The notes: generated from the sequence alone by a model not told the origin. DNA of 26,802 nt from an uncultured Thermotogae bacterium (GCA_964540085.1 CAZILO010000001.1:9470-36271), one strand, 5' to 3'. Shown: positions 169-23,989, numbered from the stretch's first letter. Made by a program: numbers and translations.

Positions 169-500
169 TCACAGTGCGGGTCGGGTAAAGATAACCGAGT
201 CGCAATAGTCGGAAATTAGCGCGCCGGGAAACGTGTCCTCGTAAAACCCCGTGATAACGAACCCAGCGTCGATTTGACCGCTGACCAAGTCTGGCGGCGT
301 ATGCCCGAATTCGAGCGGAGCGTCATTACCGCAGCGGTGGGCACGCTCCTCCTCACTGATGGTGTTAAGTTCAGAATAGGAGAGGGAGAATTGTACCTCC
401 GGGACGCCGGCCTTCTTCTTGTCCGGGTCGAATAAGTATATAACCGGTTTGTTGAATCCGAAAATGAACGCCCTGCTGTGGCGGATGCAGCAGCAGGGCG
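169..500 (-). pseudogene. C-terminal remnant of a class I SAM-dependent methyltransferase
   Basis: A minus-strand frame not in the ORF track reads [97 protein letters not shown]. This resembles the [27 protein letters not shown] C-terminus of a widespread methyltransferase family. There is no in-frame start; the left boundary (stop at 169) is exact and the right one is approximate. Confidence 0.55.
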
Positions 501-518
501 CAGCCTTACCTACAACTG

Positions 519-1376
519 CTATTTTTTGCCATTATCGTTATCGGAGCCATGATGTTTTTTGCCCTTGTTCGGAGGACAGGGATGCGAGTTGGGACCGGGG
601 TGTTCATTGCCGTTATGGCCTACTTTCCCACAGCTTGACGGTGGATGCTGACCCTTGTCCCCGGTAGCTGCGGCTCCATTTGCCGCCTGCCCGGGGGAGG
701 TCCCCTGTGCAATCGACGTTGTCAGTTCATCAAGCGCAGCGAGGATATCATCCGGTGTCGCACCGGTGCGGATAAGGCTGATCACCGTCCTGAGGGCGAT
801 CCCCGCGGGGACACCAGCCTTTATTACCTCACCCACCTTCGTTTGCACAGCCTGCATGTCGTCTTGGCTGTAACTGAACTTGTCGGCTGTTTGTAAGATC
901 GCGGTTTGAATCCCATACTGGCTCATGCCTGATCGCGCCATGGGGATCTTGGCAATGTCCCCGGTCGTGATCGCTGTCTCAAGGTAAGATTGCGCCGCGT
1001 TGAACCCGATGTGGTTGGTAAGCATAAGATCGAGGACAGAGCTGATCGCCTGAGCGGCGAACTTGGCCTGATGTACGTCGGTAATAGACCCCCACAACGC
1101 GATGTCGAGGAGAGCGTCCACGTCCGCGGGAGTCACCACCCCTGCGTCCACTGCTCCGGTAATCGTGACGACGAGCATGAACTGCGCGTTGGGGGGAAGA
1201 AGCGTGGTTCCCGTAACCCGGGTTAACACGCTGTCCAACGTGTATGAACCAGTCTGCGTGTATGAAGCGGTCTGCACGTCTTCTCCGATGGCGACGACCG
1301 CGCTCAGAGAGAGAATAGCGACCATGAAGAACACGATGGCTAACGATTTTGCTGATCTCGGTAGTCCGGCTGTCAT
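519..1376 (-). CDS. Exported hypothetical protein, predicted helical, with a low-complexity G/H/P/N/K-rich C-terminal tail
   Basis: Hydrophobic signal peptide (LAIVFFMVAILSLSAVVA). AAGGAGG SD at 1382-1388 favours the ATG at 1376 over the ORF-track GTG at 1382. Confidence 0.75.
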   Translation of the reverse strand: MTAGLPRSAKSLAIVFFMVAILSLSAVVAIGEDVQTASYTQTGSYTLDSVLTRVTGTTLLPPNAQFMLVVTITGAVDAGVVTPADVDALLDIALWGSITDVHQAKFAAQAISSVLDLMLTNHIGFNAAQSYLETAITTGDIAKIPMARSGMSQYGIQTAILQTADKFSYSQDDMQAVQTKVGEVIKAGVPAGIALRTVISLIRTGATPDDILAALDELTTSIAQGTSPGQAANGAAATGDKGQHPPSSCGKVGHNGNEHPGPNSHPCPPNKGKKHHGSDNDNGKK

Positions 1377-1436
1377 AGGCACCTCCTTTAGACCCGTGAC
1401 TTTGCGCCCCCGACTTTCGTCGGGTTTGCCCTTTCA
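1358..1436 (-). ncRNA. c-di-GMP-I (GEMM-I) riboswitch aptamer overlapping the SD, start codon and first codons
   Basis: Minus strand reads GGGCAAA-CCCGAC-GAAA-GTCGGG-GGCGCAAA-GTC-A-CGG-GTC...GAC-AG-CCG-GAC-TACCG. It has the GNRA-capped P1b, the G20/C44/A47/C92 equivalents and a complementary P2. P1 is weak. Confidence 0.85.
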
Positions 1437-1446
1437 TATTGTTTTT

Positions 1447-1455
1447 ATTATACCA
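1447..1455 (-). promoter_or_regulatory. Extended -10 promoter element (TGGTATAAT) upstream of the riboswitch-controlled exported protein
   Basis: Exact TGnTATAAT about 10 nt upstream of the aptamer; no convincing -35. Confidence 0.65.
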
Positions 1456-1605
1456 CAAATCGATCGGTCACGGTCACCTGGCGAACAGCGGAAATAATCT
1501 AGACTCCTAGACTGCAGTCAATGGCAGCGCGGCGGTGTGCAGTGCGACCGCGTTGTAACGCCGCGGCATTGGGCCTACCATAAGGTCTCCAGGAGAGTGA
1601 TAGCG

Positions 1606-2874
1606 ATGGAATCGATCAATTGGATCATTAACCACCGCGCATGGTCGTGTGCCCACAGCGAGTGGGCCGAGCGCGTAATCCCCCGTGGGGTGCCGCAAAC
1701 TGTGCGCAAGTTTCACGCCCAGATTCCGGGATACCGCATTAGCCCACTGAAGGGCCTTGACCGTCTCGCAGCGATGCTCGGACTCGGCGGTATTTGGGTC
1801 AAGGATGAGTCGCAGCGTCTCGCCCTCAACTCGTTTAAGGTGTTAGGCGGGTCGTTTGCGATCTACAACGTGCTCCGCGCCAAGCTTGGACTGGCGTCAT
1901 CCGACGTATCATTCGCTGAGCTCACCTCGCCCGAGGCACACGCCAAACTAGGGGTGATCACATTTGCCACCGCCACTGACGGCAACCACGGTCGTGGCGT
2001 AGCGTGGGCGGCGCACAAGCTCGGGCATCGCGCCGTCATCTACGTTCCCAACGGGACAGCACAAGCGCGGATCGACGCGATCAAGGGGTACGGCGCCGAG
2101 GTCGTCGTGATTGATGGCAATTACGATGCCGCCGTCGAGCAGATCAAAAACGACGCCCGTGAGCACGGCTGGCAACTGGTATCCGACACGGCGTGGGAGG
2201 GATACGAGGACATTCCCGTGTGGATAATGCAGGGCTATACCACCATGTTCTCCGAGGCGCAGGAACAACTGGCGGCCCAGGGGATAATCAAGCCAACGCA
2301 CGTCTTTCTCCAAGCGGGCGTGGGATCGCTGTCCGCCGCCGGAGTGGCGTTCTACCGCAACCTGTTTGGCTCCGACGCCCCACTGATTACCATCGTCGAA
2401 CCAACGAACGCTGCCTGTCTGTTCGAATCGGCACGGATTGGAGATGGAAAGCCGTACCAGATCGAAGGCGACTTAAACACGATCATGGCTGGCCTTGCAT
2501 GCGGCCGTCCCAACCCGATTGCGTGGAATGTCCTGTGGGACTGTGCCCATGTGTTTGTGTCTTGCCCCGATTTCGTCGCCGCACGGGGAATGCGGATGTA
2601 CGCGGTGCCGCTCGCCGGTGACCCATTCATCGTGTCCGGAGAATCAGGGGCGGTGACGCTGGGAGTGCTGTCGTTCATCATGCAACGCCCTGAACTGGCG
2701 CCGCTTCGGGACCGGCTGGGACTGGGGCCGGAGTCACAAGTGTTGTTGATAAACAGCGAAGGGAACACCGACCCCGACGACTTTCGCAAAGTTGTGTGGG
2801 AAGGAGCGCACGCGGTGCCGCAGGGATTCAAGGTAACGCAGCTGAATGATGACAAGGGGCAAACGGGGGGATAA
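1606..2874 (+). CDS. dpaL: Diaminopropionate ammonia-lyase (PLP-dependent, fold type II)
   Basis: Motifs KDESQR..LNSFKVLGG (PLP lysine), TATDGNHGRG, THVFLQAGVG, TIMAGLACG, SGESGAV and NSEGNTDP. AGGAG SD at 1591-1595 places the start at ATG 1606 rather than 1537. Confidence 0.9.
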   Translation: MESINWIINHRAWSCAHSEWAERVIPRGVPQTVRKFHAQIPGYRISPLKGLDRLAAMLGLGGIWVKDESQRLALNSFKVLGGSFAIYNVLRAKLGLASSDVSFAELTSPEAHAKLGVITFATATDGNHGRGVAWAAHKLGHRAVIYVPNGTAQARIDAIKGYGAEVVVIDGNYDAAVEQIKNDAREHGWQLVSDTAWEGYEDIPVWIMQGYTTMFSEAQEQLAAQGIIKPTHVFLQAGVGSLSAAGVAFYRNLFGSDAPLITIVEPTNAACLFESARIGDGKPYQIEGDLNTIMAGLACGRPNPIAWNVLWDCAHVFVSCPDFVAARGMRMYAVPLAGDPFIVSGESGAVTLGVLSFIMQRPELAPLRDRLGLGPESQVLLINSEGNTDPDDFRKVVWEGAHAVPQGFKVTQLNDDKGQTGG

Positions 2875-8640: not shown

Positions 8641-9636
8641 TCACAGAATCCGATCGAGCGCGAGAAAGATCATGCCCAAAAGCGCCATCGCGGTCATCGG
8701 CAGCCAGAACAGCCGCGCCACCTGATCGACCTTCAACCGGGCAAACCCGACTCGCACCACAATCACCGCGAAGAAGATAACCACGAATATCTTCACGAGG
8801 AAGAATAACGCGTCGATGAACGCCCCCAGTGCGCCGGTGAGTCCGAGCGGAGCGGCGATTCCATACGGGATGAACAGCGCGACGACAAGGGCGGACATCA
8901 CGATCATCTTAACCGCATCAGCGAGGTAGAACATTGCCAGGTTGCGCCCGGAATACTCGGCAAGGAGTCCACCGGCGATTTCGGTCTCCGCTTCCGGAAT
9001 ATCGAACGGGATCTTGGACAACTCGGCCGGCGTGACGACGAGGAGCGAGATCAGAAGAAGCACGAGCCCGATCACTCCGAGCGGTCCCACCATTCCCCAT
9101 AACGGATGTGCGGCGATGACCGCAAGGGAGAACGTGTGCGCTCCGGGCAGGATAGTCGCCAACCGCCACGCGATGCTCACCAACGTTATTGCTAACGGGA
9201 ACTCGTAGCTCATCAACATCACCATTTCACGCTGTGCCCCCACGGTGGCGTACGGCGACCCAGCGGCAAATCCGCCGATCATCATCGCCAGCGCGGGAAC
9301 GGCGAGCAGATACAGCACGAGGATTAGATCCCCGTATCCGGAGAACAGGGGCGCGAACCCACCGAGAGGAAGGTAGAACAGGATGGTCGCCACTGCCGCG
9401 AGGGATACCACCGGCATTCCGTTGAACAGCCACGTGACGGCGTGGTCAGGGACGATGTTCTCCTTGATCATCAGCTTGGTAACATCGTAAAACGGCTGAC
9501 GCAACGGCGGACCGATCCGCCCCTGCATGTGGGCGGCGAGCTTGCGGTCGAATCCCTTGTACACCAATCCGAGCAGCCCGCTTCCGAACAGAACAACGAT
9601 GCCACCCCAAACAGCGGTTGCGATTCCCACAGTCAT
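8641..9636 (-). CDS. mbhM: Membrane-bound hydrogenase membrane anchor subunit (NuoH-like)
   Basis: RKLAAHMQGRIGPP, PFDIPEAETEIAGG..AEYSG and multiple TM helices. Start ATG 9636 overlaps the mbhL stop. Confidence 0.9.
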   Translation of the reverse strand: MTVGIATAVWGGIVVLFGSGLLGLVYKGFDRKLAAHMQGRIGPPLRQPFYDVTKLMIKENIVPDHAVTWLFNGMPVVSLAAVATILFYLPLGGFAPLFSGYGDLILVLYLLAVPALAMMIGGFAAGSPYATVGAQREMVMLMSYEFPLAITLVSIAWRLATILPGAHTFSLAVIAAHPLWGMVGPLGVIGLVLLLISLLVVTPAELSKIPFDIPEAETEIAGGLLAEYSGRNLAMFYLADAVKMIVMSALVVALFIPYGIAAPLGLTGALGAFIDALFFLVKIFVVIFFAVIVVRVGFARLKVDQVARLFWLPMTAMALLGMIFLALDRIL

Positions 9637-10901
9637 CCGCACATCCTCCTTGTTTTTTCTCGCGACAGCTTAACAAGTTCTTCCTTCAGCTTAACCGCCT
9701 CGCCTCCGTCCTGATCGACGAGGGTAGCGCGGTCGAGGCAGCACATGCACGGGTCGATCGACGCCGCGATGATCGGGATGTCGGCAATCTCGTCCCCCAT
9801 GAACTTCGGCACCCACGCCATGAGGTTGGAATAGGTTGGCGCCTTCACCTTCCACGCCACCGGCTCTTCCACTCCTGCTTCCAACCGGATGTAGTGGAAC
9901 ACCTCGCCGCGCGGTGCCTCATGGCGGCCGATCCCCTCTCCGTCCGCCTTCTTCAGGACCGCAAGCAGGGCCGCTACCTTGGGGATCGACGTGAGCTCGC
10001 CTGCAGGCATGTGCTCCAGGCAGTGCTCGATGATCTTGATCGATTGATCGACCTCGAGGAGGCGGACGACGATGTTGTCGAACACGTCCCCCACTGCCGG
10101 CTTGCCGTAATCCTCCGGGGTGATCGCACTGATGTCCATGTCCGCGTACGCGAGGTACGGCATGTCCTGGCGCACGTCCTTTTTCACCCCCGATGCCCGC
10201 GCCGTCGGGCCGACAGCGCACAGGGCGACTGCATCGTCGTAGGTAAGCACCCCGACGTTGCTGGTTCGCATCGCGACCGACTTGTCGTGAAGAAACGCGT
10301 CGATCATGTCCTGCAGTAAATTCTTGTAATAACTGAGCGCCTCATAGGCAAGTCCGGCCTTCTCGTCCGGGATGTCGCGCCGCACCCCACCGTAGATCGG
10401 GATCGCGTAATCGACGCGGTTGCCGGTGAGCTGCTCCAAAAGGTCCATCACCTTCTCCCGCACCTTCCACACGAGGTGAAGCAGGGTGTCGAACCCGAGC
10501 TCGTGCGCCGCGACTCCGGCCCACAGCAAGTGGGAATGGATCCGCTCCAGCTCCCCGATGATCGTGCGGATGTACTGCGCCCGCGGCGGGACCTCGATGC
10601 CGGCGGCGTTCTCCACCGCCTGGGTGAGGGCGAGGGGGTGGGAGATCGAGCAGATTCCGCAGATCCGTTCTGCCAAATACAGAACCTGAATCAGGTTGCG
10701 CTTCATCCCCATGTATTCGATTCCGCGATGGGCATAGCCGGGCTTGATGTCCACCCCGACGATCCGTTCCCCGGACAGGCGGAACGTGAACTGGATCGGC
10801 TCCTTGAGCGCGGGATGCACCGGACCGATCGGGACCGAGTACGTCGTTTGGGTGGTGCACGTCGTACACCCGAGTTCGAGGTTGATCTTGTCGCTATCCA
10901 T
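9633..10901 (-). CDS. mbhL: [NiFe]-hydrogenase large (catalytic) subunit, group 4 / Mbh type
   Basis: Both Ni-binding motifs are intact (ERICGICS and DPCMCCLDR); also PIGPVHPALKEP, ELERIHSH, EAPRGE and a C-terminal extension after DR. Confidence 0.93.
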   Translation of the reverse strand: MDSDKINLELGCTTCTTQTTYSVPIGPVHPALKEPIQFTFRLSGERIVGVDIKPGYAHRGIEYMGMKRNLIQVLYLAERICGICSISHPLALTQAVENAAGIEVPPRAQYIRTIIGELERIHSHLLWAGVAAHELGFDTLLHLVWKVREKVMDLLEQLTGNRVDYAIPIYGGVRRDIPDEKAGLAYEALSYYKNLLQDMIDAFLHDKSVAMRTSNVGVLTYDDAVALCAVGPTARASGVKKDVRQDMPYLAYADMDISAITPEDYGKPAVGDVFDNIVVRLLEVDQSIKIIEHCLEHMPAGELTSIPKVAALLAVLKKADGEGIGRHEAPRGEVFHYIRLEAGVEEPVAWKVKAPTYSNLMAWVPKFMGDEIADIPIIAASIDPCMCCLDRATLVDQDGGEAVKLKEELVKLSREKTRRMCG

Positions 10902-11421
10902 TGCGTTCCTCCCACTTGACGAGGCGCTTCACGGACTTCTGCGTCTCCTCCTCCAGGTCCTTGCGCCACGGGTGGATCGTCGCGCCTTCGGGAAGAAATA
11001 GGTTGCGTCCGTCGGGGATCCCTTCGATCGTGATCCCGTAAAATTCCTGCTTTTCCCGTTCCGAGGTCAGGGCCCCGGGAAGGACGTCGGTAATCGTGGG
11101 AAGGCGAAAATCGTCCTTGGGCACGCGGGTGCGGATCGTGAACGTGATCTCGCCGTAGCGCTCACCCCATCCGGCGGTGAAGTGGTAGTTGAACGCCACC
11201 GCCTCGCCGAGGTCATCTCCGGAGATCACCGACAGATGCGGCGTGAACTGCTCGCACAGGTGCATGACCGCGGTATGCAGTTGGTCACGCGGAACCTCGA
11301 TCCACACGTCGTATACCGGGCGCGCTGCGATTGTGCCCACGTTGCGTTCAACCACGTGGGAGTCCGTGATCACGGCGCCAAATTTCTCGTTGAAGGCGGT
11401 CAGAATCTCATCCGGGGTCAT
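10894..11421 (-). CDS. mbhK: Membrane-bound hydrogenase subunit K (NuoC-like)
   Basis: HLSVISG.D, YHF, LPTITDVLPGA...EREKQEFYG; position in the operon. Confidence 0.88.
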   Translation of the reverse strand: MTPDEILTAFNEKFGAVITDSHVVERNVGTIAARPVYDVWIEVPRDQLHTAVMHLCEQFTPHLSVISGDDLGEAVAFNYHFTAGWGERYGEITFTIRTRVPKDDFRLPTITDVLPGALTSEREKQEFYGITIEGIPDGRNLFLPEGATIHPWRKDLEEETQKSVKRLVKWEERNG

Positions 11422-11849
11422 TTGCTCACCCCCGCTTGTTCCAAGTGGGCCACCGCTTTGACCACCCCATCAATGATCGCCTCGGGCCGCGGCGGGCATC
11501 CCGGCACGTATACCGCAACGGGCACGACCTCGTCCACCGGGCCCTGCACGTTGTACGACTCGTAGAACACCCCGCCGGTCGAGCCGCAGCCGCCCACAAC
11601 GACGACTGCCTTGGGATCGGGGGTCTGATCGTAGATCCGCTTGAGGCGGGACAGCATCGGACGGGTCACCGGTCCGGTAACAAGGAGAACGTCAGCATGG
11701 CGCGGCGTCCCGGTGAGCATGATCCCGAACCGCTCAGTGTCGTAGCGCGGGGTGAGGGCGGCGACGATCTCGATATCGCAGCCGTTGCACGACCCGGTCG
11801 CGACGTGAAATACCCATAACGCTTTCTTGAACGACCGTGGCAGCGCCAT
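11418..11849 (-). CDS. mbhJ: [NiFe]-hydrogenase small subunit (NuoB-like)
   Basis: GSCNGCDIEI, PRHADVLLVTG, GGCGSTGG, VPGCPPRPEAI. Confidence 0.93.
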   Translation of the reverse strand: MALPRSFKKALWVFHVATGSCNGCDIEIVAALTPRYDTERFGIMLTGTPRHADVLLVTGPVTRPMLSRLKRIYDQTPDPKAVVVVGGCGSTGGVFYESYNVQGPVDEVVPVAVYVPGCPPRPEAIIDGVVKAVAHLEQAGVSK

Positions 11850-11855
11850 CTCATC

Positions 11856-12194
11856 TCACCTCAGCAGCCCGATGACGATGAACACCACCGCGAGGACGCC
11901 GATGAACCATGCGAAGTAGTCGGACAAAATCCCAGTGTGCCACGCGCGGATGCGATCGTAATAAGCGCGCAACCCCGCGGTCATCCCCCAATACAGATGG
12001 TCACCGCGCACATGCAGTCGTGCCGGATCCGGTTCTTCGTTTCCCGCAAGGAACGGCTTTGTTTGATCGGAGTTTTTCTTGTAGTCCTTGCGACCAGCGT
12101 TCCAGATCCAGAACCCGATCCCGAGCGCTCCCAGAAACAGAAGCGTCCATACAACCGGACTCCATATGCCGAATCCCGTATTGATCGCGTTCAC
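11856..12194 (-). CDS. mbhI: Membrane-bound hydrogenase subunit I
   Basis: Two TM segments flanking QTKPFLAGNEE and HTGILSDYFAW; GTG start with GGAGG SD; synteny. Confidence 0.8.
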   Translation of the reverse strand: MNAINTGFGIWSPVVWTLLFLGALGIGFWIWNAGRKDYKKNSDQTKPFLAGNEEPDPARLHVRGDHLYWGMTAGLRAYYDRIRAWHTGILSDYFAWFIGVLAVVFIVIGLLR

Positions 12195-12195
12195 G

Positions 12196-13740
12196 TCAAC
12201 CTCCCATCACTGCGCCGATGTACGCGTCCCGGCCCATCCACAACGCTTTCGCCGCCGGCGTCACGATCGTGTGCACAAAGAACCCGGGGAATAGACCGAA
12301 CGCGATCACCACCACGGCCAGCGTGCCCATGGCGGCAAACATCCATCCCGACGGCCGTGCCGCTGGCGCGGCCAACCGCGGCCCGAGAAATGCGGCCTGG
12401 AACACCTTCACGAACACCGCAAGCAGGAGGATGCTCCCGAGGATGGCGATCACCGCCAAAATCGGGCTGTAGCGGAACGTGGACTCATAGATCATCAATT
12501 TGGATGCAAACCCGTTGAACGGTGGAATCCCAGCGAGCGCAAACGACCCGATCATGAAGAACACGGCAGTCCACGGCAGATCATGCCCCAGTCCGCCCAT
12601 TTGATTTAAGTTACGCGTGCCCGCGGCCCGGATCACAGCCCCGGCGGACAGGAACAACAGTCCGACGCAGGCAGCGTCGTTGATCATGTGGAATATTCCT
12701 CCCTGCATCGCCACCAATCCGAACGGCGGCTGCCCGGCGCTTGTCGCCAATCCGACCCCGACTCCGAGGAGCATGTACCCGATCTGGGACACGGCACCGT
12801 AGGCGATCAGTCGCTTGATGTCGCTCTGAATCAACGCCATCGTCACGCCGACGAATATCGTGAGGAGGGCGAGCGTAATCAAAATCCATCCCAGTGCGGT
12901 GACACTGATTGTCAGCCCGTACAGGGTGAACAACACCCGGAACAGGCCGTACAGGCTCGCTTGCGAGTTGGCGACCAACACCGCTGCGATCGGGGCCGGT
13001 GCCTCGCCGTACGCGTCTGGGGCCCACATGTGCATCGGAACCGCACCCGCCTTCATCGCTAACGCGGTGAGCAACAGCCCAAGGGCGACCTTATCGATCA
13101 TGCTACTGCCGATATGCGCCGCCAAATACGCGATGTTCAGCCCATCATACTCGCCGTACAGCAACCCGATCGCCAGGAGAACGAACAGCCCGGATATGGT
13201 GTACAGGGTCATCGTCTTAAACGCCGCCTCCTGCGATCTGCCTTGCCATACGCGGAACCCAATCAGCCCGCACGCAGCGATCGACGTGATCTCCAGGAAC
13301 ACGAAAAAGTTGAACATATCACCGGTTAATTCCATCCCGAAGATTCCTGCCCCCAGCAGAAGGAGTAACGCCTCGTACATATTGCCGCCGGAGCGCCGCC
13401 GCCAGTACGGAAAGCTATAGAAAATCGCGGTGACGAGGACAAGCGCTGTCAAAATCACCATGAACGCGCTCATTCCGTCCACTTCGAGAATGATCCTAAT
13501 CGGGAAGTGCATCCCCGACGGCAGTGTCGCCGTTCCCCCGAGCACGTAGGTAATCGGGGCGGCAGCGGTGAACACGTGCGCCGCCACCAACCCGGCGCAC
13601 GCTGTCGTCAGAAGCGCAATCAACCCGGTGAATATGCGGCGTAACGGCACGCTAATCCGTCCGATCAACGGGACGGCGAATGCGCCCACCAGTGGAATCG
13701 CGATCAACAGCACCGGAGCGTTGAAAATGAGTGCATTCAT
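12196..13740 (-). CDS. mbhH: Membrane-bound hydrogenase antiporter-like subunit H (MrpD/NuoN-like)
   Basis: GDMFNFFVFLEI, KAGAVPMHMWAPDAY, KRLIAYGAVSQIGY, LAGIPPFNGFASK. Confidence 0.9.
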   Translation of the reverse strand: MNALIFNAPVLLIAIPLVGAFAVPLIGRISVPLRRIFTGLIALLTTACAGLVAAHVFTAAAPITYVLGGTATLPSGMHFPIRIILEVDGMSAFMVILTALVLVTAIFYSFPYWRRRSGGNMYEALLLLLGAGIFGMELTGDMFNFFVFLEITSIAACGLIGFRVWQGRSQEAAFKTMTLYTISGLFVLLAIGLLYGEYDGLNIAYLAAHIGSSMIDKVALGLLLTALAMKAGAVPMHMWAPDAYGEAPAPIAAVLVANSQASLYGLFRVLFTLYGLTISVTALGWILITLALLTIFVGVTMALIQSDIKRLIAYGAVSQIGYMLLGVGVGLATSAGQPPFGLVAMQGGIFHMINDAACVGLLFLSAGAVIRAAGTRNLNQMGGLGHDLPWTAVFFMIGSFALAGIPPFNGFASKLMIYESTFRYSPILAVIAILGSILLLAVFVKVFQAAFLGPRLAAPAARPSGWMFAAMGTLAVVVIAFGLFPGFFVHTIVTPAAKALWMGRDAYIGAVMGG

Positions 13741-14084
13741 CCGCGAAGCTCCTTTATTTTGTTTACGTCCAGAGTTTTATAATGGCGATAAATAAAGATA
13801 GCAAATGACAGCAATAGCGCCGTCGTTGCTAATCCAATCACGATGCTTGTCAGTGTCAGCGCCTGTGGGGTGGGGAGCACCATTGGCTTTGCCTTGGGAG
13901 CGTACGTGTAGATTGGGGCGATCCCCCCCTGCCGATACCCCAGTGTGACTAAGAACAGATTTACCCCGGTTTCCACAAGGTCAATCCCGATCACGATCTT
14001 GATCAAGTTACGCTTGAACAACAAGACGTAAATCCCGAGGATTACAAGCAGGATCGCGACGATGTACGGGAAGTTTCCGATCAT
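13737..14084 (-). CDS. mbhG: Subunit G (MrpC-like)
   Basis: NLIKIVIG, GVNLFLV, PTPQALTLTSIVIG. Start ATG 14084 overlaps the upstream stop; the ORF-track N-terminal extension is spurious. Confidence 0.88.
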   Translation of the reverse strand: MIGNFPYIVAILLVILGIYVLLFKRNLIKIVIGIDLVETGVNLFLVTLGYRQGGIAPIYTYAPKAKPMVLPTPQALTLTSIVIGLATTALLLSFAIFIYRHYKTLDVNKIKELRG

Positions 14085-14554
14085 CGTTTTTCCTCCTCGC
14101 CACGCGCACCAACAAGCATTACCAACACCACGCTCGCTAGACCGGTCATAACTTTTAATCCCACCGCCCAGTTCATCCATGGAAGCGTGCCACCGGTGTT
14201 CAGGATTCCCGCGTTGGGACCGATCGGGGTGTGAGCACCAAAGATCGATCCCGAATTAGCAATGACATTGTAGAAGAACGACGTGCCGATCCCGATAAAC
14301 CCGAGGGCGATAAACGCCAGTGCGCCTAGTTCTTCCAAATTTTGGAGAACGTGTGCGTTTAGCTTTCCCTTGATCCCCGCCACCCCAAACGCCACCACGA
14401 GGAGGGCAAACGCGGTCGCTACCACTGATCCCCCTTGGAATCCACCGCCCGGAGTGAGGTGCCCATGCATGATCACGTAAAAACCAAAAATAACAGTAAG
14501 TCCGTACAGGAACCGCGTTATTGTGCGTACAATCACTGACATCTCGCCGTTCAT
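14081..14554 (-). CDS. mbhF: Subunit F (MrpB C-terminal-like)
   Basis: HGHLTPGGGFQGG motif. Confidence 0.88.
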   Translation of the reverse strand: MNGEMSVIVRTITRFLYGLTVIFGFYVIMHGHLTPGGGFQGGSVVATAFALLVVAFGVAGIKGKLNAHVLQNLEELGALAFIALGFIGIGTSFFYNVIANSGSIFGAHTPIGPNAGILNTGGTLPWMNWAVGLKVMTGLASVVLVMLVGARGEEEKR

Positions 14555-14826
14555 CGTTCATCCTCCCGCAGCTTGCGAAACAGGGCAACAACCCCTACCA
14601 CAGCGGAGAACAACACTGTCGCCTCGCCCAACGTGTCAAAGCCACGGTAATCGAACACAATTGATGTCACAACGTTGTTCGCCGACACCTGCGCCTGGGC
14701 GTGGTTGATGAAGTAATCATCCATCACCGGATTTACCGGTGCCCCGAATGGCCGTAACTGCGCAGCGGCCATCAGAAGAAACGCAGCGGCAAACAGAAAC
14801 ACGGAGAACGCGAGTGCCTTTTTCAT
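14551..14826 (-). CDS. mbhE: Subunit E (MrpB N-terminal-like)
   Basis: NVVTSIVFDYRGFDTLGEATVL motif. Confidence 0.88.
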   Translation of the reverse strand: MKKALAFSVFLFAAAFLLMAAAQLRPFGAPVNPVMDDYFINHAQAQVSANNVVTSIVFDYRGFDTLGEATVLFSAVVGVVALFRKLREDER

Positions 14827-15077
14827 TCTTTCTCCTTCCGGCTTGTGCGGCGCAGGGCAATCACGTAAATCGCGGTGGTGAGCGCCGCCCCGATTCCGGC
14901 TTCGGCAATGGCCACGTCCGGCGCCTGCAGGATGTAAAACTCAAGCGATACGAGCAAGCTCGCGCCAGCAAGGGCGATTACCGCCGCCAGTAGGTCCCGC
15001 AGCCACACCGCAAGGATCCCACCCGAGAGAATCATGACAAGAATAAACACCTGAATAATGGCTTGTAGAACGGTCAT
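14823..15077 (-). CDS. mbhD: Subunit D (DUF4040-like)
   Basis: RDLLAAVI, LQAPDVAIAEAGIGA motif. Confidence 0.88.
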   Translation of the reverse strand: MTVLQAIIQVFILVMILSGGILAVWLRDLLAAVIALAGASLLVSLEFYILQAPDVAIAEAGIGAALTTAIYVIALRRTSRKEKE

Positions 15078-15409
15078 TTCTTCTCCTCCAACTTATCCAC
15101 TACCGCATACTTCGGTTTTACCCCGCTCCGATACGTAGCCCGGGCGATAGCGTGAGCGCCAGTCGGGTTGGTGATGAGAAGCGCGATTAACGCGATGATC
15201 GCATGGATGGCCAACGTGTCGAATGCCGGACCACCGCGGGCAAACCCGTACGCGATCACCGCCGCGGTGGTAAAAATCGATCCGAACGTCGTCGCCTTGG
15301 TGGCACCGTGGAGGCGGGTGTACACGTCGGGAAACCGGAGCAGAGCAATCGAGCCAAGTCCGTTAAACGTAAGCCCGATGCCAAACAATACGTAGATGAG
15401 GATGTTCAT
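15074..15409 (-). CDS. mbhC: Subunit C (MrpG-like)
   Basis: LLRFPDVYTRLHGATKATT and TNPTGAHAIARA motifs. Confidence 0.88.
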   Translation of the reverse strand: MNILIYVLFGIGLTFNGLGSIALLRFPDVYTRLHGATKATTFGSIFTTAAVIAYGFARGGPAFDTLAIHAIIALIALLITNPTGAHAIARATYRSGVKPKYAVVDKLEEKK

Positions 15410-15672
15410 AGTCCGCCCTCCAGATAACGTGCCACATACAACGTGCCCACAAACGATAGCAACGCGTAGATGATTGCCACGTCGACGAAGATCACCTCGC
15501 CGTACGCCGCTGCTAATACGACCATCCCCGATACCACCAGGGTGTTAATCGTATCCAACGCGACAATGCGATCCCCGGTCGTCGGACCGAGTCCGAGCCG
15601 CACCATACTGACAATCATGAATAACAGAAAACACGCGGCAACGATGAAGAACGTGATCGGGTCAACGATCAT
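15406..15672 (-). CDS. mbhB: Subunit B (MrpF-like)
   Basis: GPTTGDRIVALDTINTL and DVAIIYALLSFVGT. Start ATG 15672 overlaps the mbhA stop. Confidence 0.88.
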   Translation of the reverse strand: MIVDPITFFIVAACFLLFMIVSMVRLGLGPTTGDRIVALDTINTLVVSGMVVLAAAYGEVIFVDVAIIYALLSFVGTLYVARYLEGGL

Positions 15673-16193
15673 TCCACGATCCTCCTTGCCCAGTCCGGGA
15701 ACGAACCGCACACCTCGGCGGGCGACGGTTCCGGATTCTTCACATTAATCCAATGCACATACAAATCGCCGTTTTCCTCATCAACGTCCACGGACAGCGT
15801 CCCCGGAGTGAGGGTGATCGAATTGGCAAGCAGGGTAATCCCGAGGTCAGTCTTCAATCCCGGGGAGATCTTGACGATGCCCGGCCGGATCTTTCCGGTT
15901 ATCATCCGATAGGCAACGTCAAAATTGGATTTGGCCATCGCAAAGAAAAACGGGCCGATTAGATATACCAAGAACTTGAGAAACCGCACCGGGTTAAAGA
16001 TGCGAAAGATGTTTGCCTCGCCCGCTCGTTCTTTGGCAAACGCAACGCGAAATGCCACCGCCCCAGCAATCAGAGATAGAACCGCTCCCGCGATCAATTC
16101 GCTGAGGCTCCACAGTCCGAACGGTCCACTAAACATAGTCAGAATGAGATAAAGGACATAAGCCACGAGCGTCGTTGCCAAGAATGCGAGCAT
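15669..16193 (-). CDS. mbhA: Subunit A (MrpE-like)
   Basis: IRPGIVKI, LANSITLTPGTLSVDV, LYVHWI; GGAGG SD. Confidence 0.88.
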   Translation of the reverse strand: MLAFLATTLVAYVLYLILTMFSGPFGLWSLSELIAGAVLSLIAGAVAFRVAFAKERAGEANIFRIFNPVRFLKFLVYLIGPFFFAMAKSNFDVAYRMITGKIRPGIVKISPGLKTDLGITLLANSITLTPGTLSVDVDEENGDLYVHWINVKNPEPSPAEVCGSFPDWARRIVE

Positions 16194-16321: not shown

Positions 16322-16942
16322 TCAATCCTTTCTCCCCACGATGATCCCGATCGTTCCATTGAACAGGGAATATCGCGATTCGATCCGGGGAATGCGCGGA
16401 ACTACCGCGTCGATTCCGCCGGCGCGTACGAACGCACGAAAGTTGTGAAAATGATCGCGCCCCGCCATCCGTTCGATCGCGTGAATAAATCCCCATGTGA
16501 AGTTCCAGCGCCGCGGGCGCGAGTACTCAGCGACAATTACAATCCCGCCCGGTCGCACTACCCGCACGGCCTCAGCAACCATCCGTTCACGGTCAGGAGC
16601 GGGATGTTCGTGCAGACATAAACTGAGAATCACCGCCGAGAAACTGCTATCGGGAAACGGCAATGAAAAGCCGGAACCAAGGACATAGTGAATTTCGGGC
16701 GGTCCGAGGCGACGAGCAACGGAAATCATCTCCGGGGACAAGTCGATTCCCGTGGTAACAATCCCAGCGGCATGCAGACTGCGGCACTGGGCACCGGTAG
16801 CACAGGCGATGTCGATGGCATCAGCTATCCGATGTGCCGTGCACAGCGACGTTATCTCGCGGCGAAGTGCGCGCAGAAGCGGATCGATCATGCGCGCGTA
16901 TATACGCGCACTGCCGCTGCCGTAGGTGGATGCTGGGGTCAC
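16322..16942 (-). CDS. Class I SAM-dependent methyltransferase
   Basis: AIDIACATG motif I, GIDLSPEMI, LPFPDSSFSAV, EAVRVVRPGG. GTG start overlaps the upstream stop (GTGA). Confidence 0.85.
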   Translation of the reverse strand: MTPASTYGSGSARIYARMIDPLLRALRREITSLCTAHRIADAIDIACATGAQCRSLHAAGIVTTGIDLSPEMISVARRLGPPEIHYVLGSGFSLPFPDSSFSAVILSLCLHEHPAPDRERMVAEAVRVVRPGGIVIVAEYSRPRRWNFTWGFIHAIERMAGRDHFHNFRAFVRAGGIDAVVPRIPRIESRYSLFNGTIGIIVGRKD

Positions 16943-19848
16943 TTTACCGTGATCGTATCCGTGAGCGAGTCGGTATTACCATCGTTGTCGGTGACGGTCA
17001 ACGTGACCTTGTATGTCCCGGCTGCAGTAAAGGTGTGGGTGACTTTTACTCCGGTGGCGTCCGGCTTGCCATCCCCGTTGAAGTCCCACGCGTACGCCAC
17101 GATCTTGCCGTCAAAGTCGAACGAATTGGACGCGTCGAACATCATGAGCTGACCGGCGGTGGGATGCTGCGGGGCATAGGTAAAGTCGGCGGTTGGCGGC
17201 TGGAACGTGATCACTACCTGCTTCGGCTTGATGTACCCCCCGATTGCAACGTGCGGTGCGGTCTGCGGAGTGATAGTAACCGTCACCTGCTTAGGAGTGG
17301 TGAACGTGAACCGCGGCGGCAGGGTGGTATCGTCGACGGACACCGTGTACTTCCCCGGTGTCAGGTTAGTAAACTCGAACCGGCCGGTGGCGGCGGTATC
17401 GGTATCGGCGGTGCTGCCCGCACCGGACAGGAGAATCCGCACTTGAGCAACCCCACCTTCACCGGGATCGTAGACCCCGTTCTTGTTAGTGTCATCGAAC
17501 AGGATCCCATCGAGATGAGCAATCGGAGCGAGCGGAACGTTGATTCCCGCAGTAATCCCGGGTTTAACGGTCACCTGCGGCGATGACGCTGGCGGCGCGG
17601 TATCGGACGGAAGATGGCTAATGGTAATGGTGTACGTCCCCGGTGCGCACGGCGGGAATCGGTAGTATCCGCTCGCATCGGTGGACACTTCGGTAATGCG
17701 GGTGGACACGATCGCGCCGGCAACCGGGCGATCGCCCGGATCGTAACGACCATTCCCGTTGACATCGATGAACACGCGCCCGCTGATCCTGCCCTTGGTA
17801 ACAAGGAACGGGACGGGCAAATCAAACCTCCATGTAAATGTCGTCCCCCACTGGAACGTGGCCGCACTCGCATCGTTTCTGTCCCATCCGATAGTCCCAG
17901 TCAGCCCGAGGGTGAGGGCATCGAGAAGCTGAACATTGCCAGTTACCGAAACGCTGAATGTGTCCGTACTGTTCGTCAGATTGATCTGGGCGGAGTGAAT
18001 GGAATTTTTCGCGTGAAACCGCAGGGAAACGTTGTCGCTGGTGGACAGGGTCGCCCCGGTGATGAGGTTGAGATTCTTGGTTTGGGCGAGGTTTAAGTAC
18101 AACGAGAATGCATCAGTCGATAACCCAATTCCCTCATTAAACGTCAGCGTCCGGTAGGAGGTAGCAGCGGCATGGTCGAGCTGATCGGACAGCTTACCAG
18201 AAAATGAGTACGGGAATGCGCCGGTCGTGTTTTGCAGTCCAACCGCGAGGAGACGGTCAATCTCGTTCTGTGCGGTGAGATCCGGCGCCCGTTTCCACGT
18301 GAACTCGCACGTACCGGTAATGGTGGGCCCATCTTTAAGCGGGGTGGACTGAAAGTTAAGCCCAAGGTCGTCAGTGATCGTTGTTGGCACGAGCGGGTCA
18401 CCGACGACGTTGTCCCACGTATGACTGAGCGACGCACGCAGGGAGAGATCGGTGGTGGTCAACCGTTGCGACACGGAGATGCCGGCCTGATCAGCACGGT
18501 CACCTGGGAAGTACGTGCCCACTGAGAATACCTCCCCGCTCAGGAAGTACGGAGTGGTATCGATTTTGGTGTTGAAGTACAGCGCGCGACTGGTGCGCCC
18601 ATCGTTGACCCCCAACGCCCCCTCGCCGCGGATCGTCCAGTCGGTGAGCGGTTCTGCCGCTGCCGACAGGCTCCACGCTGCAGCCCGAGTCGCCTGGTCC
18701 CGCTTGTCAAGGTAACCGATCCCGAAGTTGGCCTGCTGGGGACCGATGGATAGCAACCCGCCGAATCGCGTCTGTGCATCCTCACCACCGCCGATGAGAC
18801 GGATTCGATAGTTGTCGGCGTCGATGGTTACGCTTCCGCCGCGGCCGTATACGCTTAACAGGTCGGTGAGGCGAAGAAAGGTATCTCCAACCACGTACGT
18901 GGCCGGCGTCTTCCGGTATGTGAGGGTAAACGAACTCACTGTGACCGCTCCCGGGCCAAACAGCGGCCCGAGGTGCAACGTGGATGAGAAATACCCGGCG
19001 TACACACTGCCAGCGAGGGAAAAATACAAGTCGCTGCTGACGGCGTTGGTAAACAAGTTATGGTTAAATGAAAACTGCACTTGTGCTGACAGCACGTCGA
19101 GCAACGTCCCGCCCACTGCCTCGGGCGGGGGCGGCAGGATGGTGGTGAACCATACCTGCTCATCCTTGACCCCAGAATAGAGGGTGGAGTGGACGGACAC
19201 AGTGAGGAGATCTCGCCCTGGAGCGGCATCGGTGGGGACGGCGACGGTGATCGTTACCGTGCGACTTTCCTGGGGCGTGAGGCTGATTTGATCCGCGGAG
19301 ACGGTCACCGGAAATTGATGTGCCGACTGCGCGCTGATTCGGAGCGTATCCTGCGCATTCCCCTGATTGACGATCGTCACCGCGTACGCCGCTTTACCTC
19401 CGGGAGGAACGCTCTTTCCCTCGGGAGGGATGATCACTACCTTATTGACCGGCTTCACCTTCACTTGTGCGCTCGCACTCTGGTTGATTGCCGGATTGGT
19501 TGCAGACACGGCGTGTACGGTAATCGTGTACGTTTTCGCCGGCGCTCCCGCGGGAACGGTGATCGTGATGAACAGGGTTCCCTCTTCGCCCGGTTTGAGC
19601 GCAATATTTTGGGGGGCACCGAGTAAACTCCATCCGTTCGGGGTGTCGTAACTCAGATTAAACGTATCCGCGGCTGCTTCGCTGTTAGTCACTGCGAACA
19701 CGTGTGTAACAAACTCTCCGGGCGCCACCGTCTTAAGTCCGGACAGGACGTGCACTTCCACGCCAGCGCCAAGGCAGACCAGATTTACCAGAAGGACGAT
19801 GCCTCCCCATATCAATGCGGCTTTCAGCCCGAGCTTAACCGTGTCCAT
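16939..19848 (-). CDS. Large exported multidomain protein: two Ig-like domains, a central beta-strand-rich region (possible barrel/usher-like), two SdrD-B/CnaB-like domains and a C-terminal PKD domain
   Basis: Signal peptide; VTN...ADTFNL and VNQGNAQDTL Ig-like repeats; GRVFIDVNGNGRYDPGD and GILFDDTNKNGVYDPGE SdrD-B-like motifs; PKD (YAWDFNGDG, HTFTAAGTYKVTLTVTDNDG). The barrel assignment is inference. The start could be 19860. Confidence 0.7.
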   Translation of the reverse strand: MDTVKLGLKAALIWGGIVLLVNLVCLGAGVEVHVLSGLKTVAPGEFVTHVFAVTNSEAAADTFNLSYDTPNGWSLLGAPQNIALKPGEEGTLFITITVPAGAPAKTYTITVHAVSATNPAINQSASAQVKVKPVNKVVIIPPEGKSVPPGGKAAYAVTIVNQGNAQDTLRISAQSAHQFPVTVSADQISLTPQESRTVTITVAVPTDAAPGRDLLTVSVHSTLYSGVKDEQVWFTTILPPPPEAVGGTLLDVLSAQVQFSFNHNLFTNAVSSDLYFSLAGSVYAGYFSSTLHLGPLFGPGAVTVSSFTLTYRKTPATYVVGDTFLRLTDLLSVYGRGGSVTIDADNYRIRLIGGGEDAQTRFGGLLSIGPQQANFGIGYLDKRDQATRAAAWSLSAAAEPLTDWTIRGEGALGVNDGRTSRALYFNTKIDTTPYFLSGEVFSVGTYFPGDRADQAGISVSQRLTTTDLSLRASLSHTWDNVVGDPLVPTTITDDLGLNFQSTPLKDGPTITGTCEFTWKRAPDLTAQNEIDRLLAVGLQNTTGAFPYSFSGKLSDQLDHAAATSYRTLTFNEGIGLSTDAFSLYLNLAQTKNLNLITGATLSTSDNVSLRFHAKNSIHSAQINLTNSTDTFSVSVTGNVQLLDALTLGLTGTIGWDRNDASAATFQWGTTFTWRFDLPVPFLVTKGRISGRVFIDVNGNGRYDPGDRPVAGAIVSTRITEVSTDASGYYRFPPCAPGTYTITISHLPSDTAPPASSPQVTVKPGITAGINVPLAPIAHLDGILFDDTNKNGVYDPGEGGVAQVRILLSGAGSTADTDTAATGRFEFTNLTPGKYTVSVDDTTLPPRFTFTTPKQVTVTITPQTAPHVAIGGYIKPKQVVITFQPPTADFTYAPQHPTAGQLMMFDASNSFDFDGKIVAYAWDFNGDGKPDATGVKVTHTFTAAGTYKVTLTVTDNDGNTDSLTDTITVK

Positions 19849-19940
19849 ATCGTACACCACAGTAGACGATACGGACGCACGAAGAAAGGACCAATAAAAG
19901 CGGGCAACTGGACGTTTGTCGCTCCTGAGGGTGATATCCG

Positions 19941-22148: not shown

Positions 22149-22670
22149 TTACGGTGACGTCAACGTGTACGTCACGGTGACGGCGTAGGCACCGGGAGCA
22201 TCATCCCAGCTTGGGATGTACTCGTACTGGATATCGCTGATGTGAGTGAGTCCCGGCCCGCCGGTGCTCAACGTTTGATCGCTGGCAAGCGGGGTAAATG
22301 AAGACAAAGCGCCTCCCTTCACCTCGAACCGCGACAGATCAGCAGTATTCGTGCCCGTGCTTGCGGCATGCAGAGTGAGCGTATAGTTGGTGTTGCTGAT
22401 TACGTACGCATTTTTGGCCTTCGAGGTAAGCGGCGTCCACGTATTGGTAGCGGGATCGTACAAGCCTCCATCAATCGTTCCAAGGTCAACGCTCATATCA
22501 GCAGTCGGGATGTAGAGCACGATCCAGTTCTGCACACTCCACATTACCACCGGCAACAAACTCCCCGACAGCGGGGTTGCTCCACTGTCCGTTGCCGTAT
22601 CCGCCATCACACCTACTGTAACTAACATCAACCCGCCAATTACAGCGAGCAAGAAGAATAGCCTCTTCAT
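22149..22670 (-). CDS. Exported pilin/WxL-like subunit (candidate major subunit)
   Basis: Signal peptide; MWSVQNWIVL..VDLGTI, SNTNYTLTLHA and C-terminal DDAPGAYAVTVTYTLT shared with neighbours. AGGAGG SD supports ATG 22670. Confidence 0.7.
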   Translation of the reverse strand: MKRLFFLLAVIGGLMLVTVGVMADTATDSGATPLSGSLLPVVMWSVQNWIVLYIPTADMSVDLGTIDGGLYDPATNTWTPLTSKAKNAYVISNTNYTLTLHAASTGTNTADLSRFEVKGGALSSFTPLASDQTLSTGGPGLTHISDIQYEYIPSWDDAPGAYAVTVTYTLTSP

Positions 22671-22675
22671 CAAAA

Positions 22676-22728
22676 GCACCTCCTAATGGTTTAATTTTCG
22701 AGCACCTAGCAGCTCTGCCACCATTAGG
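22676..22728. repeat. 53-bp translation-initiation cassette, near-identical (49/53) to 23511-23563
   Basis: gcacctcctaatggtttaattttcgagcacctagcagctctgccaccattagg versus gcacctcctaatggtttgattttcgagcacctagcgactcggccaccattagg. Confidence 0.9.
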
Positions 22729-22868
22729 TACGCCACGGTAGCCCGACAATCTCACGTGAGATTCGCGGCTTTGCGCCCCAGGATCGCTCCTGGTTTGCCT
22801 TTTTCGTCGTCACCCATAGGCCGTAGCTTTGCGCCCCACCCTTTCGGAATGGTTTGCCCTTCAGTGCT
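22701..22868 (-). ncRNA. Outer c-di-GMP-I aptamer of nested pair B
   Basis: 5' half AGCACTGAAGGGCAAACCATTCC-GAAA-GGGTGGGGCGCAAAGCTACGGCC; 3' half GGTGGCAGAGCTGCTAGGTGCT lies about 100 nt downstream. P1 AGCACT/GGTGCT is slightly out of the canonical register. Confidence 0.7.
22735..22807 (-). ncRNA. Inner, complete c-di-GMP-I aptamer of nested pair B
   Basis: ACG-AAAAA-GGCAAA-CCAGGA-GCGA-TCCTGG-GGCGCAAA-GCCGCG-AATCTC-ACGT-GAGATT-GTCGGGC-TAC-CGT; canonical P1 register with G20. Confidence 0.88.
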
Positions 22869-22950
22869 TATTGAGATGAGGCTGATACCAAACTCAACTT
22901 ATATTGCGGTCTGTTTCTAATAACCACCTCCTTATAATTGTTACAAGGAT

Positions 22951-23073: not shown

Positions 23074-23505
23074 CTACTTGGTAGTGACGGTGTAAGTAAC
23101 GATCGTGGCATAAGTACCGGGAGCCATCGCCCGCAGGTTAAATAAGGTGTAGTTTACGCCGACCTTAGCATCGTTCTTCCCATTGTACGTGGACAGACCA
23201 ACTTTCAGGTGGTCACTGCCGTTACCGGACAGGGAAACGGTAAGGGACCAACTGGTATTGCTGTACACGAACAGGGTGTTTGCGTTTTCCTTGGCAACTT
23301 CGTCGACACCTGCCGGAATTGCGCCAAAGTCGAATGCGGTGTCTGCGATCTTGAGCTCGACGAACCCTTGGATCGTCCAGCTGATCTTGTCCTCTACGGA
23401 GACAGAATTGCTATGATTATGACCATTGGCGAACCCGGCGAGCCCGATCATCGCCACTGCCAAACCCAGCACCAACAGACCTACGATAAGTTTATTCATC
23501 CTCAT
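23074..23505 (-). CDS. Exported pilin/WxL-like subunit
   Basis: Signal peptide; ISWTIQGFVELKI..FDFGAI, SNTSWSLTVS and C-terminal MAPGTYATIVTYTVTTK. AGGAGG SD supports ATG 23505. Confidence 0.7.
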   Translation of the reverse strand: MRMNKLIVGLLVLGLAVAMIGLAGFANGHNHSNSVSVEDKISWTIQGFVELKIADTAFDFGAIPAGVDEVAKENANTLFVYSNTSWSLTVSLSGNGSDHLKVGLSTYNGKNDAKVGVNYTLFNLRAMAPGTYATIVTYTVTTK

Positions 23506-23535
23506 TGAAAGCACCTCCTAATGGTTTGATTTTCG

Positions 23536-23723: not shown

Positions 23724-23814
23724 TCGCTGAGGACGTAGTGCATTGCAGCAATTGAGCTGCAATCTTTAAAACAATGTGAATTTATACAGAGGGGAACAAG
23801 TAACCGAAAACTTT

Positions 23815-23954: not shown

Positions 23955-23989
23955 CTGTCTCGGTTCACTTGTCAATGACCATCGCTCTT

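Follow-up and report, generated by a model that had tools for sequence, protein, structure and literature searches.

The locus and its gene

The stretch of DNA analysed here (the window) comprises 26,802 nucleotides from a genome labelled as an uncultured Thermotogae bacterium (GCA_964540085.1, CAZILO010000001.1:9470-36271). Its minus strand carries a gene for a 285-aa secreted protein whose ribosome-binding site, start codon and first codons lie inside a class I cyclic di-GMP (c-di-GMP-I) riboswitch aptamer. The following features, numbered from the first letter of the window, make up this gene and its 5' end.

519..1376, minus strand: coding sequence (CDS) of the 285-aa secreted protein, based on the open reading frame (ORF), full-length homologs and an AlphaFold2 model; no Pfam family
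1357..1440, minus strand: complete c-di-GMP-I (GEMM-I) aptamer, based on the RF01051 score, a minimum free energy (MFE) fold with both hairpins, and covariation
1380..1389, minus strand: Shine-Dalgarno (SD) sequence AAAGGAGGUG, based on sequence, fold and upper-stem pair counts
1374..1376, minus strand: start codon ATG, which is the A-U-G of an 11-nt tetraloop receptor (CUAAA...UAUG) and aligns to the conserved 'uAuG' of RF01051
1359..1373, minus strand: codons 2-6, ACA GCC GGA CUA CCG (TAGLP), based on the Rfam alignment, constraint and covariation
1447..1457, minus strand: extended -10 promoter TGTGGTATAAT, read from the sequence, with the -10 hexamer at 1452-1447

The ORF at 1376-519 is a real gene, as its homologs are 32-56% identical over the full length. 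The encoded protein begins with a signal peptide of about 30 residues, followed by an all-alpha body and a C-terminal tail that is disordered and rich in G, N, K and H. A Pfam search returned no family, the homologs are annotated as hypothetical, and the all-alpha AlphaFold2 model (predicted local distance difference test, pLDDT, 71) had no neighbour in the PDB better than E 0.2 in a Foldseek search. Members of the protein family share a [ED][VIM]QT[PD]S motif directly after the predicted signal-peptide cleavage site and end in low-complexity N/G/K/H-rich tails with a final GKK. The shared mature N-terminal motif and the GKK tail suggest a common sorting or anchoring signal.

A complete c-di-GMP-I aptamer at the predicted 5' end of the mRNA

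Rfam cmscan matched RF01051 (c-di-GMP-I) at 1440..1357 on the minus strand with 79.8 bits, at a gathering score of 35 and an E value of 1.9e-14, and the match spans the full model (positions 1-87). This is the same element that an initial annotation, made from the sequence alone, had claimed as an aptamer at 1358-1436. The MFE structure of the 5' mRNA (ViennaRNA) is the aptamer fold, with both hairpins and an additional AGG/CCU stem.

As the helices of this class are named differently in different papers, we refer to them by their features. The GAAA-capped hairpin is P1 and the receptor hairpin P2 in the initial annotation and in the discovery paper (PMC1950547; Weinberg 2007), while structural papers name an extra short junction helix P1 or P1a, here called the closing helix, and the GAAA hairpin P1b (PMC11705072). 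In these terms the aptamer is composed as follows.

1435..1436, minus strand: 5' strand of the closing helix (P1 of the crystal structures), forming only the two pairs U1436.G1359 and G1435-C1360
1430, minus strand: ligand-contacting G, equivalent to G20, an invariant G column in the alignment with its role taken from Vc2 (PMC11705072) and general knowledge
1404..1429, minus strand: GAAA-tetraloop hairpin, placed by comparison with the Rfam consensus; its tetraloop is 1418-1415 and its C44 equivalent 1406
1403, minus strand: first A of GC-AAAG, equivalent to A47, which is A as in the standard class (G in the RF03167 consensus) and invariant in the alignment
1363..1401, minus strand: tetraloop-receptor hairpin from the Rfam alignment and the fold, with the SD and the start codon inside and a coding 3' strand (1374-1363)
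1362-1361, minus strand: unpaired A1362 followed by C1361, the C92 equivalent, from the Rfam alignment
C1360 and G1359, minus strand: 3' strand of the closing helix, from the alignment to the Rfam consensus

The bases that define the class are all present, with G1430, A1403, C1361, C1406 and G1370 corresponding to G20, A47, C92, C44 and G83, and none of them varies within the family. A G rather than an A at the G20 equivalent presumably predicts c-di-GMP over cyclic GMP-AMP (cGAMP) as the ligand. The roles of G20, A47, C92 and of the C44-G83 tertiary pair are known from Vc2 (PMC11705072). The GAAA tetraloop at 1418-1415 is matched by an 11-nt-type receptor made of CUAAA at 1391-1387 and UAUG at 1377-1374; a receptor of this type is found in about half of the GEMM RNAs (PMC1950547), and our assignment follows the motif description given there together with general knowledge.

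The score, the two covarying hairpins joined by AAA, the GAAA loop with its receptor and the contact bases of the class were all found. The helix that closes the three-way junction is less clear, with 2 bp in the window, 2-3 bp in relatives, one compensatory example (L063) and none at all in L003. We regard the c-di-GMP-I identity of the aptamer as established by this analysis, and we infer ligand binding from it.

Assignment to RF03167, the c-di-GMP-I-GGC variant, was considered and rejected. This model is the best-scoring Rfam model for several of the homologous aptamers and for three other aptamers of the window. However, the base that separates the two Rfam consensus lines is A (GCAAAG) in all aptamers of the window and the related loci, as in the standard class, and not G (GCGAAG) as in the RF03167 consensus. 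The higher scores of RF03167 appear to stem from its closing helix and its missing upper receptor stem.

Start codon and first codons as parts of the aptamer fold

The apex of the receptor hairpin is UAAAGGAGGUGCCUAU. It contains GGAGG at 1386-1382, separated by a 5-nt spacer from the ATG at 1376-1374. AGG at 1387-1385 is paired with CCU at 1379-1377, and the AGGUG at 1384-1380 forms the apical loop. Over its 10 nt the SD matches the standard 16S rRNA 3' tail, which we take as the reference in place of the organism's own rRNA. The 3' strand of the hairpin is composed of the G of the ATG (1374) and ACA GCC GGA CUA (1373-1362), so that each of the first codons has a part in the fold. Codon 2 takes part in two pairs of the receptor hairpin and supplies the first base of the bulge; codon 3 supplies the G of the AG bulge (1370, its first base), which is the G83 equivalent, along with two stem pairs. 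Three stem pairs are formed by codon 4, two more by codon 5 together with the unpaired base that precedes the C92 equivalent, and codon 6 (CCG) contributes the ligand-pairing C (1361, its first base) and two bases of the closing helix. In Vc2, G83 pairs with C44 (PMC11705072).

The initial annotation had described a P2 apex that carries the SD, an AGG/CCT extension of the stem over part of it, and the G of the ATG with codons 2-6 as the source of the P2 3' strand and of the ligand-pairing C. The sequence, the MFE fold and the Rfam alignment, respectively, agree with this description in detail, and the comparative evidence given below agrees with its overall claim of an aptamer around the SD and the start codon to which codons 1-6 supply the last part.

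By itself the ATG does not exceed chance: as part of the receptor UAUG it is a default element of the aptamer. In many non-coding c-di-GMP-I aptamers, too, this frame gives MTAGLP and soon a stop; those of Proteobacteria and Bacillota read 'MTAGLP...' or 'MVAGLL*' and stop within 6-60 codons. What we regard as beyond chance here is the strong SD combined with a long, conserved in-frame gene.

That non-coding aptamers likewise read MTAGLP... could speak for a true start elsewhere, in which case the aptamer would be an ordinary 5'-untranslated region (5'-UTR) element with an accidental in-frame reading. A Met located 19-20 codons downstream in a pair of double-psi-type (DPBB) genes described below (L004/L033), which may be their real start, points in the same direction. 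We consider this very improbable for the gene of the window. The frame stays open and is conserved in all homologs, and no other start codon with an SD exists in the window's family. The sole other upstream in-frame start, a GTG at 1382, lies inside the SD and is not conserved, and the signal peptide would lose its charged N-region if translation began at the next Met (codon 18). Furthermore, ORF lengths counted from the receptor AUG are bimodal among the matches listed, with one class of up to about 130 aa without signal peptides and one of about 130-500 aa that has them.

Distribution of the embedded-start layout

Family loci were first gathered by protein homology, which gave 15 with the window counted. 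The aptamer surrounds the start in 13 of these, including the closest homologs L002 and L003. The two exceptions, L060 and L062, are the same rearranged copy (L060:1400-1520) recovered from two samples, in which unrelated DNA stands in place of the promoter and of the aptamer's 5' half, with the breakpoint inside the GAAA hairpin and GGACG as the SD. Their 311-aa ORF is intact, starts with MIAGLP and is nearly identical to that of L061, which comes from the same sample as L060. In a collection of 5.8 billion proteins, all 29 full-length family members start with M[TI][AV]GLP at the receptor AUG.

A DNA pattern scan added at least 15 more embedded-start loci, confirmed by Rfam at 64-85 bits. 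At least 28 loci besides the window share the layout, the DPBB pair described below included, and at least 21 loci belong to the window's protein family, the window counted. Across the homologous aptamers the Rfam scores range from 46.8 to 85.5 bits, with L003 the lowest at 46.8. Among the matches listed, many further family members with the layout occur in metagenome-assembled genomes (MAGs) of Bipolaricaulota and in MAGs labelled 'Thermotogae'. The same matches include other proteins with this layout, namely PKD-domain proteins of Ca. Fraserbacteria (L083, L108), a BNR/sialidase-like protein of Ca. Acetothermia (L068), a CAP-domain protein from an Acidimicrobiaceae MAG (L146) and two unclassified proteins (L084, L094).

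Two DPBB/RlpA-like genes, L004 and L033, from Omnitrophota and Planctomycetia MAGs, are possibly further cases. At L004:3520-3600 (minus strand) and L033:6212-6300 (plus strand), AGGAGG and AUG lie inside the aptamer, and a perfect intrinsic terminator of 8-9 bp with a U-run follows about 25 nt past it, within the putative ORF, with an internal AUG in the 3' arm of the terminator. It may be that both transcription and translation of these genes are controlled, or that translation really starts at the downstream Met.

Two early search results were set aside. A match to Chromobacterium (L001) in a contig scan by protein alone covered 29 residues and is spurious. The first DNA pattern scan gave 48 loci, mostly chance matches or ordinary aptamers with GGGG as stem sequence, and long ORFs were present only at L004, L010, L029 and L033.

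At eleven loci in MAGs labelled 'Thermotogae' and in Bipolaricaulota MAGs (L087, L089, L112, L118, L141-L143, L147, L098, L136, L161) we observed SD-like loops CAGGAGGAAUCC and the receptor AUG with ORFs of 13-127 codons that lack signal peptides (MVARLPKV..., ...LPKDP...). These loci could belong to ordinary leaders, or their short ORFs could be translated into leader peptides.

The genes and aptamers of several 'uncultured Thermotogae bacterium' MAGs (L010, L070, L125, L170 and others) are nearly identical to those of Bipolaricaulota MAGs, with 90% identity between the proteins of L010 and L052. The taxonomic label of these third-party (TPA) 'Thermotogae' assemblies seems doubtful.

Covariation and dual constraint on RNA and protein

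Covariation was assessed twice. In a first test, 14 aptamers were set against a specified structure, SD stem and closing helix included. Of the cells, 94.0% were paired, and nine pairs had changed on both sides. A second test covered 34 aptamers, aligned by a covariance model built from the first alignment; 94.8% of the cells were paired, with slid controls reaching at most 47%, and 15 of the 24 pairs had double-sided changes, in 65 cells where 15 were expected. None of 500 shuffles reached the observed values in either test; as the sequences are related and the second alignment is model-fitted, these figures express consistency and not formal significance.

Within the 34 aptamers, double-sided changes affect all six stem pairs of the GAAA hairpin, and they extend to pairs whose 3' partner is a codon base (U-A 22 and C-G 11; U-A 25 and C-G 8; G.U 16, A-U 8 and G-C 8). 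A pair of the SD upper stem is A-U in 16, G.U in nine and G-C in four aptamers. The inner pair of the closing helix, corresponding to G14-C93, is kept in 32 of 34 (30 G-C, two C-G), and the next pair is C-G in 24, U.G in six and U-A in two. In L063 the closing helix is formed by UUC/GAA in place of CG/CG, with codon 6 changed from Pro to Arg, and a synonymous change of GGA to GGG is accompanied by a change of its partner from U to C. L002 has AAA instead of GGA (Gly to Lys), with one of the two changes compensated.

All 29 embedded-start loci among the matches listed have GCC as codon 3, and the C92 equivalent is invariant. The sites that do vary are those free of RNA constraint, one at the first position of the bulge and the other immediately 5' of C92. 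Over all pairs of sequences, the four-fold third positions of codons 3-6 are 86% identical, compared with 57% in the remainder of the gene. Nucleotides +1 to +21 are 72% identical across unrelated protein families and nucleotides +22 to +60 only 29%, and these families have MxAGLP(K) in common. The dual RNA and protein constraint on the N-terminus that the initial annotation had proposed is borne out by the GCC codon, the invariant C92, the compensated changes and the shared peptide, as well as by the comparison of synonymous sites it had called for.

The same data bear on the possibility that the window copy is decaying or blind to the ligand, a constitutive hairpin that tunes translation while its closing helix is too weak for binding. 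The initial annotation had named a weak P1 as a reason for which binding might fail, and this worry is justified if the closing helix is meant, which consists of U.G and G-C only and for which the helix-length data from Vc2 agree (PMC11705072). Lengths of 2-3 bp, however, are usual throughout the group, and the helix covaries (L063). A copy of this kind would also fit L003, which has no closing helix and only 46.8 bits, and L060/L062, where the 5' half of the aptamer was lost and the ORF stayed intact. Against this stand a score of 79.8 bits with all ligand-contact and tertiary-contact bases intact, synonymous sites in codons 3-6 that are constrained across clades only 33-56% identical in protein, and the G14-C93-type pairing in 32 of the 34 aptamers. 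We therefore consider a ligand-blind copy improbable.

Promoter and lack of a separate expression platform

A TRTGnTAnnnT element lies at equal distance from the aptamer in every intact homologous locus, and the group of L010 has an additional TAGACA -35 box at a spacing of 17 nt. From the position of the promoter in the window, we predict a transcription start near 1441-1439, some 9-10 nt upstream of the G20 equivalent.

Downstream of the aptamer, conservation drops sharply at all three codon positions after codon 7 and no conserved RNA follows; no terminator-like site was found in window positions 400-1700. The missing terminator and the loss of conservation fit the lack of a separate expression platform, as the initial annotation had stated.

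Upstream of the promoter we noticed a 19-nt stretch, CCGCTGTTCGCC(C)AG(G)TGAC, at window 1470-1497 (minus strand), L002:128-147 and L003:157-179. In L002 and L003 an upstream ORF ends with it; in the window it persists upstream of the promoter, where the ORF itself is missing; near this remnant, a gene for a pyridoxal phosphate (PLP)-dependent enzyme begins on the opposite strand.

Proposed mechanism

The 30S subunit requires roughly positions -15 to +13 in single-stranded form, and in this mRNA that stretch lies wholly within the receptor hairpin. For the window, opening it is calculated to require 10.0 kcal/mol at 37 °C or 6.3 kcal/mol at 60 °C; for four homologs the values are 7-13 kcal/mol, and all of them consider secondary structure only. 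We consider it likely that the element is a functional c-di-GMP-I riboswitch whose aptamer is at the same time its expression platform, turning translation off by direct occlusion; the OFF sign is predicted from structure. Direct occlusion is an established mechanism in other riboswitch classes (PMC10907184).

According to this model, transcription would begin a few nucleotides upstream of the aptamer. Without ligand the hairpin would breathe, at an opening cost of about 6-10 kcal/mol that the 10-nt SD could plausibly overcome, so the long SD would admit the 30S subunit and the secreted protein would be made. c-di-GMP bound at the junction would pair with C1361, the first base of codon 6, and stack on the G1435-C1360 pair, and the GAAA tetraloop would dock on the receptor that contains the AUG. 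We draw these contact roles from Vc2 (PMC11705072) and general knowledge. Since pairing, stacking and docking would hold the AUG and codons 2-6 locked in a helix and out of the mRNA channel of the ribosome, initiation would be blocked, and translational OFF control is therefore favoured. Because half of the SD stays in the apical loop, the step under ligand control may be how the start codon is accommodated and not how the SD is reached.

Several points weigh against this mechanism. With half of the SD in the exposed apical loop, access to it possibly does not change upon binding, and the apo hairpin may already be strongly inhibitory. The internal loop is GGC, while the Rfam consensus is GAC. 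The sequencing runs that hold the window sequence are DNA metagenomes only (marine sediment, hydrothermal vent), with no RNA runs among them. Extracellular proteins are often induced, not repressed, by c-di-GMP. In Vc2, shortening of the closing helix halves folding even with excess ligand (PMC11705072), and the helix of the window consists of G-C and U.G. Finally, ON logic was predicted for many GEMM RNAs (PMC1950547).

Some of these points would also favour the same architecture with the opposite sign or at another level of control, in which the bound fold raises expression or acts mainly via transcript polarity. Expression could be raised if the bound fold shielded the 5' end from decay, as the place of the aptamer at the very start of the transcript would allow, or if it offered the SD loop, with the unpaired 3' half of the SD (AGGUG), to the 30S subunit for standby binding. 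The targets are secreted or surface proteins (PKD, BNR, CAP, DPBB), a class often induced at high c-di-GMP, and the predicted ON logic of GEMM RNAs would suit such a switch as well. However, the AUG and codons 2-6 are paired within the helix that the ligand stabilizes, and no conserved platform lies downstream. We looked for another apo structure with stronger sequestration of the SD, as ON logic would demand, and found none, because the aptamer fold is already the MFE structure. We thus regard the opposite sign as unlikely and retain translational occlusion as the preferred mechanism.

Taken together, the observations can be read more broadly, although we do so tentatively and with slightly less than even confidence. 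The 3' half of the c-di-GMP-I aptamer would be a translated, portable module, and promoter, aptamer and 'MxAGLPK' codons would have been joined repeatedly to unrelated secreted-protein genes in Bipolaricaulota, Fraserbacteria and other uncultured lineages, with the peptide serving as the N-region of the signal peptide. The switch would act on accommodation of the start codon held by the receptor, not on SD access, and neither this mechanism nor the dual coding would have been described before.

Other aptamers and genes in the window

Two small ORFs with signal peptides (22149-22679 and about 23074-23505) have leaders at 22690-22880 and 23510-23730, both on the minus strand. Each leader contains a 5' half-aptamer made of the GAAA hairpin and the 5' strand of the receptor hairpin, one of them a 38-bit Rfam match at 23720-23672. 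About 25 nt past the half-aptamer follows a full aptamer and then a conserved helix, in which CCUAAUGGU and ACCAUUAGG, the latter from the SD region, are paired. A single 3' strand might be the object of competition between the two 5' halves in these leaders. The leaders of the pilin-like genes have a separate SD-sequestering helix, and the opposite sign of regulation that the initial annotation had ascribed to them is conjectural.

In a third full aptamer at 23812-23956 (minus strand), about 65 nt are inserted at the apex of the receptor hairpin. The aptamer is followed by a GCCGAAAGUUUUCGGU hairpin without a clear U-tract; it lies just downstream of a sigma-70-family gene (24044-24697). The stretches 8641-16193 and 16939-19860, both on the minus strand, jointly hold an Mrp/Mbh-type membrane-bound hydrogenase or NADH-dehydrogenase-like cluster and a 973-aa surface protein with PKD, SdrD-B and Ig-like domains, the latter downstream of the riboswitch-controlled small ORFs.

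Comparison with known systems

With Vc2 (V. cholerae tfoY), Cd1 (C. difficile) and Bc1 (B. thuringiensis) the aptamer shares the two hairpins joined by AAA, the GAAA loop with the 11-nt receptor, the equivalents of G20, A47, C92 and C44-G83, and a short closing helix. In the papers retrieved, known c-di-GMP-I examples lie in the 5' UTR and signal to a separate platform, either a terminator that overlaps the receptor hairpin or a long expression platform (PMC1950547, PMC11218506, PMC9262584), whereas here the SD, the AUG and codons 2-6 lie inside the aptamer and nothing comes after it. A search of a full-text literature collection found no report of a c-di-GMP-I aptamer that contains its start codon. 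We therefore appear to be dealing with a known aptamer in a seemingly undescribed architecture, platform-less and partly translated, with a wide distribution among uncultured phyla.

The usual view of a riboswitch aptamer is that of a non-coding domain in the 5' UTR whose signal is read out by a separate platform. In the present case a large and well-studied aptamer is partly translated, with a tetraloop receptor that supplies the start codon and a sense codon predicted to pair with the ligand. If true, this would provide a clean natural case of overlapping constraint from RNA structure and protein coding, in which RNA selection explains a conserved N-terminal peptide. It would further offer a compact c-di-GMP-responsive translation module of about 85 nt without a platform for engineering, and it would mean that gene callers and riboswitch annotators that end aptamers before the start codon misplace starts (as for P0002) or miss the regulatory link in these phyla.

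The adenine riboswitch of V. vulnificus add and the cobalamin riboswitch of E. coli btuB likewise have the start codon or early coding nucleotides in the regulatory structure. In both, however, these nucleotides belong to the expression platform, that is the sequestering hairpin, and not to the aptamer, and no N-terminal peptide is shared across unrelated proteins.

Also comparable are SAM-II/V, SAM-III (S-MK box), SAM-SAH, preQ1-I and preQ1-II, in which the ribosome-binding site lies within the ligand-binding fold, so that aptamer and platform form one unit and the bound ligand keeps off the 30S subunit (PMC10907184). The SAM and preQ1 classes that act by direct occlusion are small H-type pseudoknots which bury the SD, and c-di-GMP-I is not among them (PMC10907184). 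In the present RNA the SD (1389-1380) and the AUG (1376-1374) also lie inside an aptamer hairpin with no separate platform, and if the proposed mechanism is true, c-di-GMP-I would join the direct-occlusion riboswitch classes. Unlike in the SAM and preQ1 classes, the SD is only half paired here; what is buried instead is the start codon, as part of a tetraloop receptor, along with five sense codons, one of which is predicted to base-pair with the ligand.

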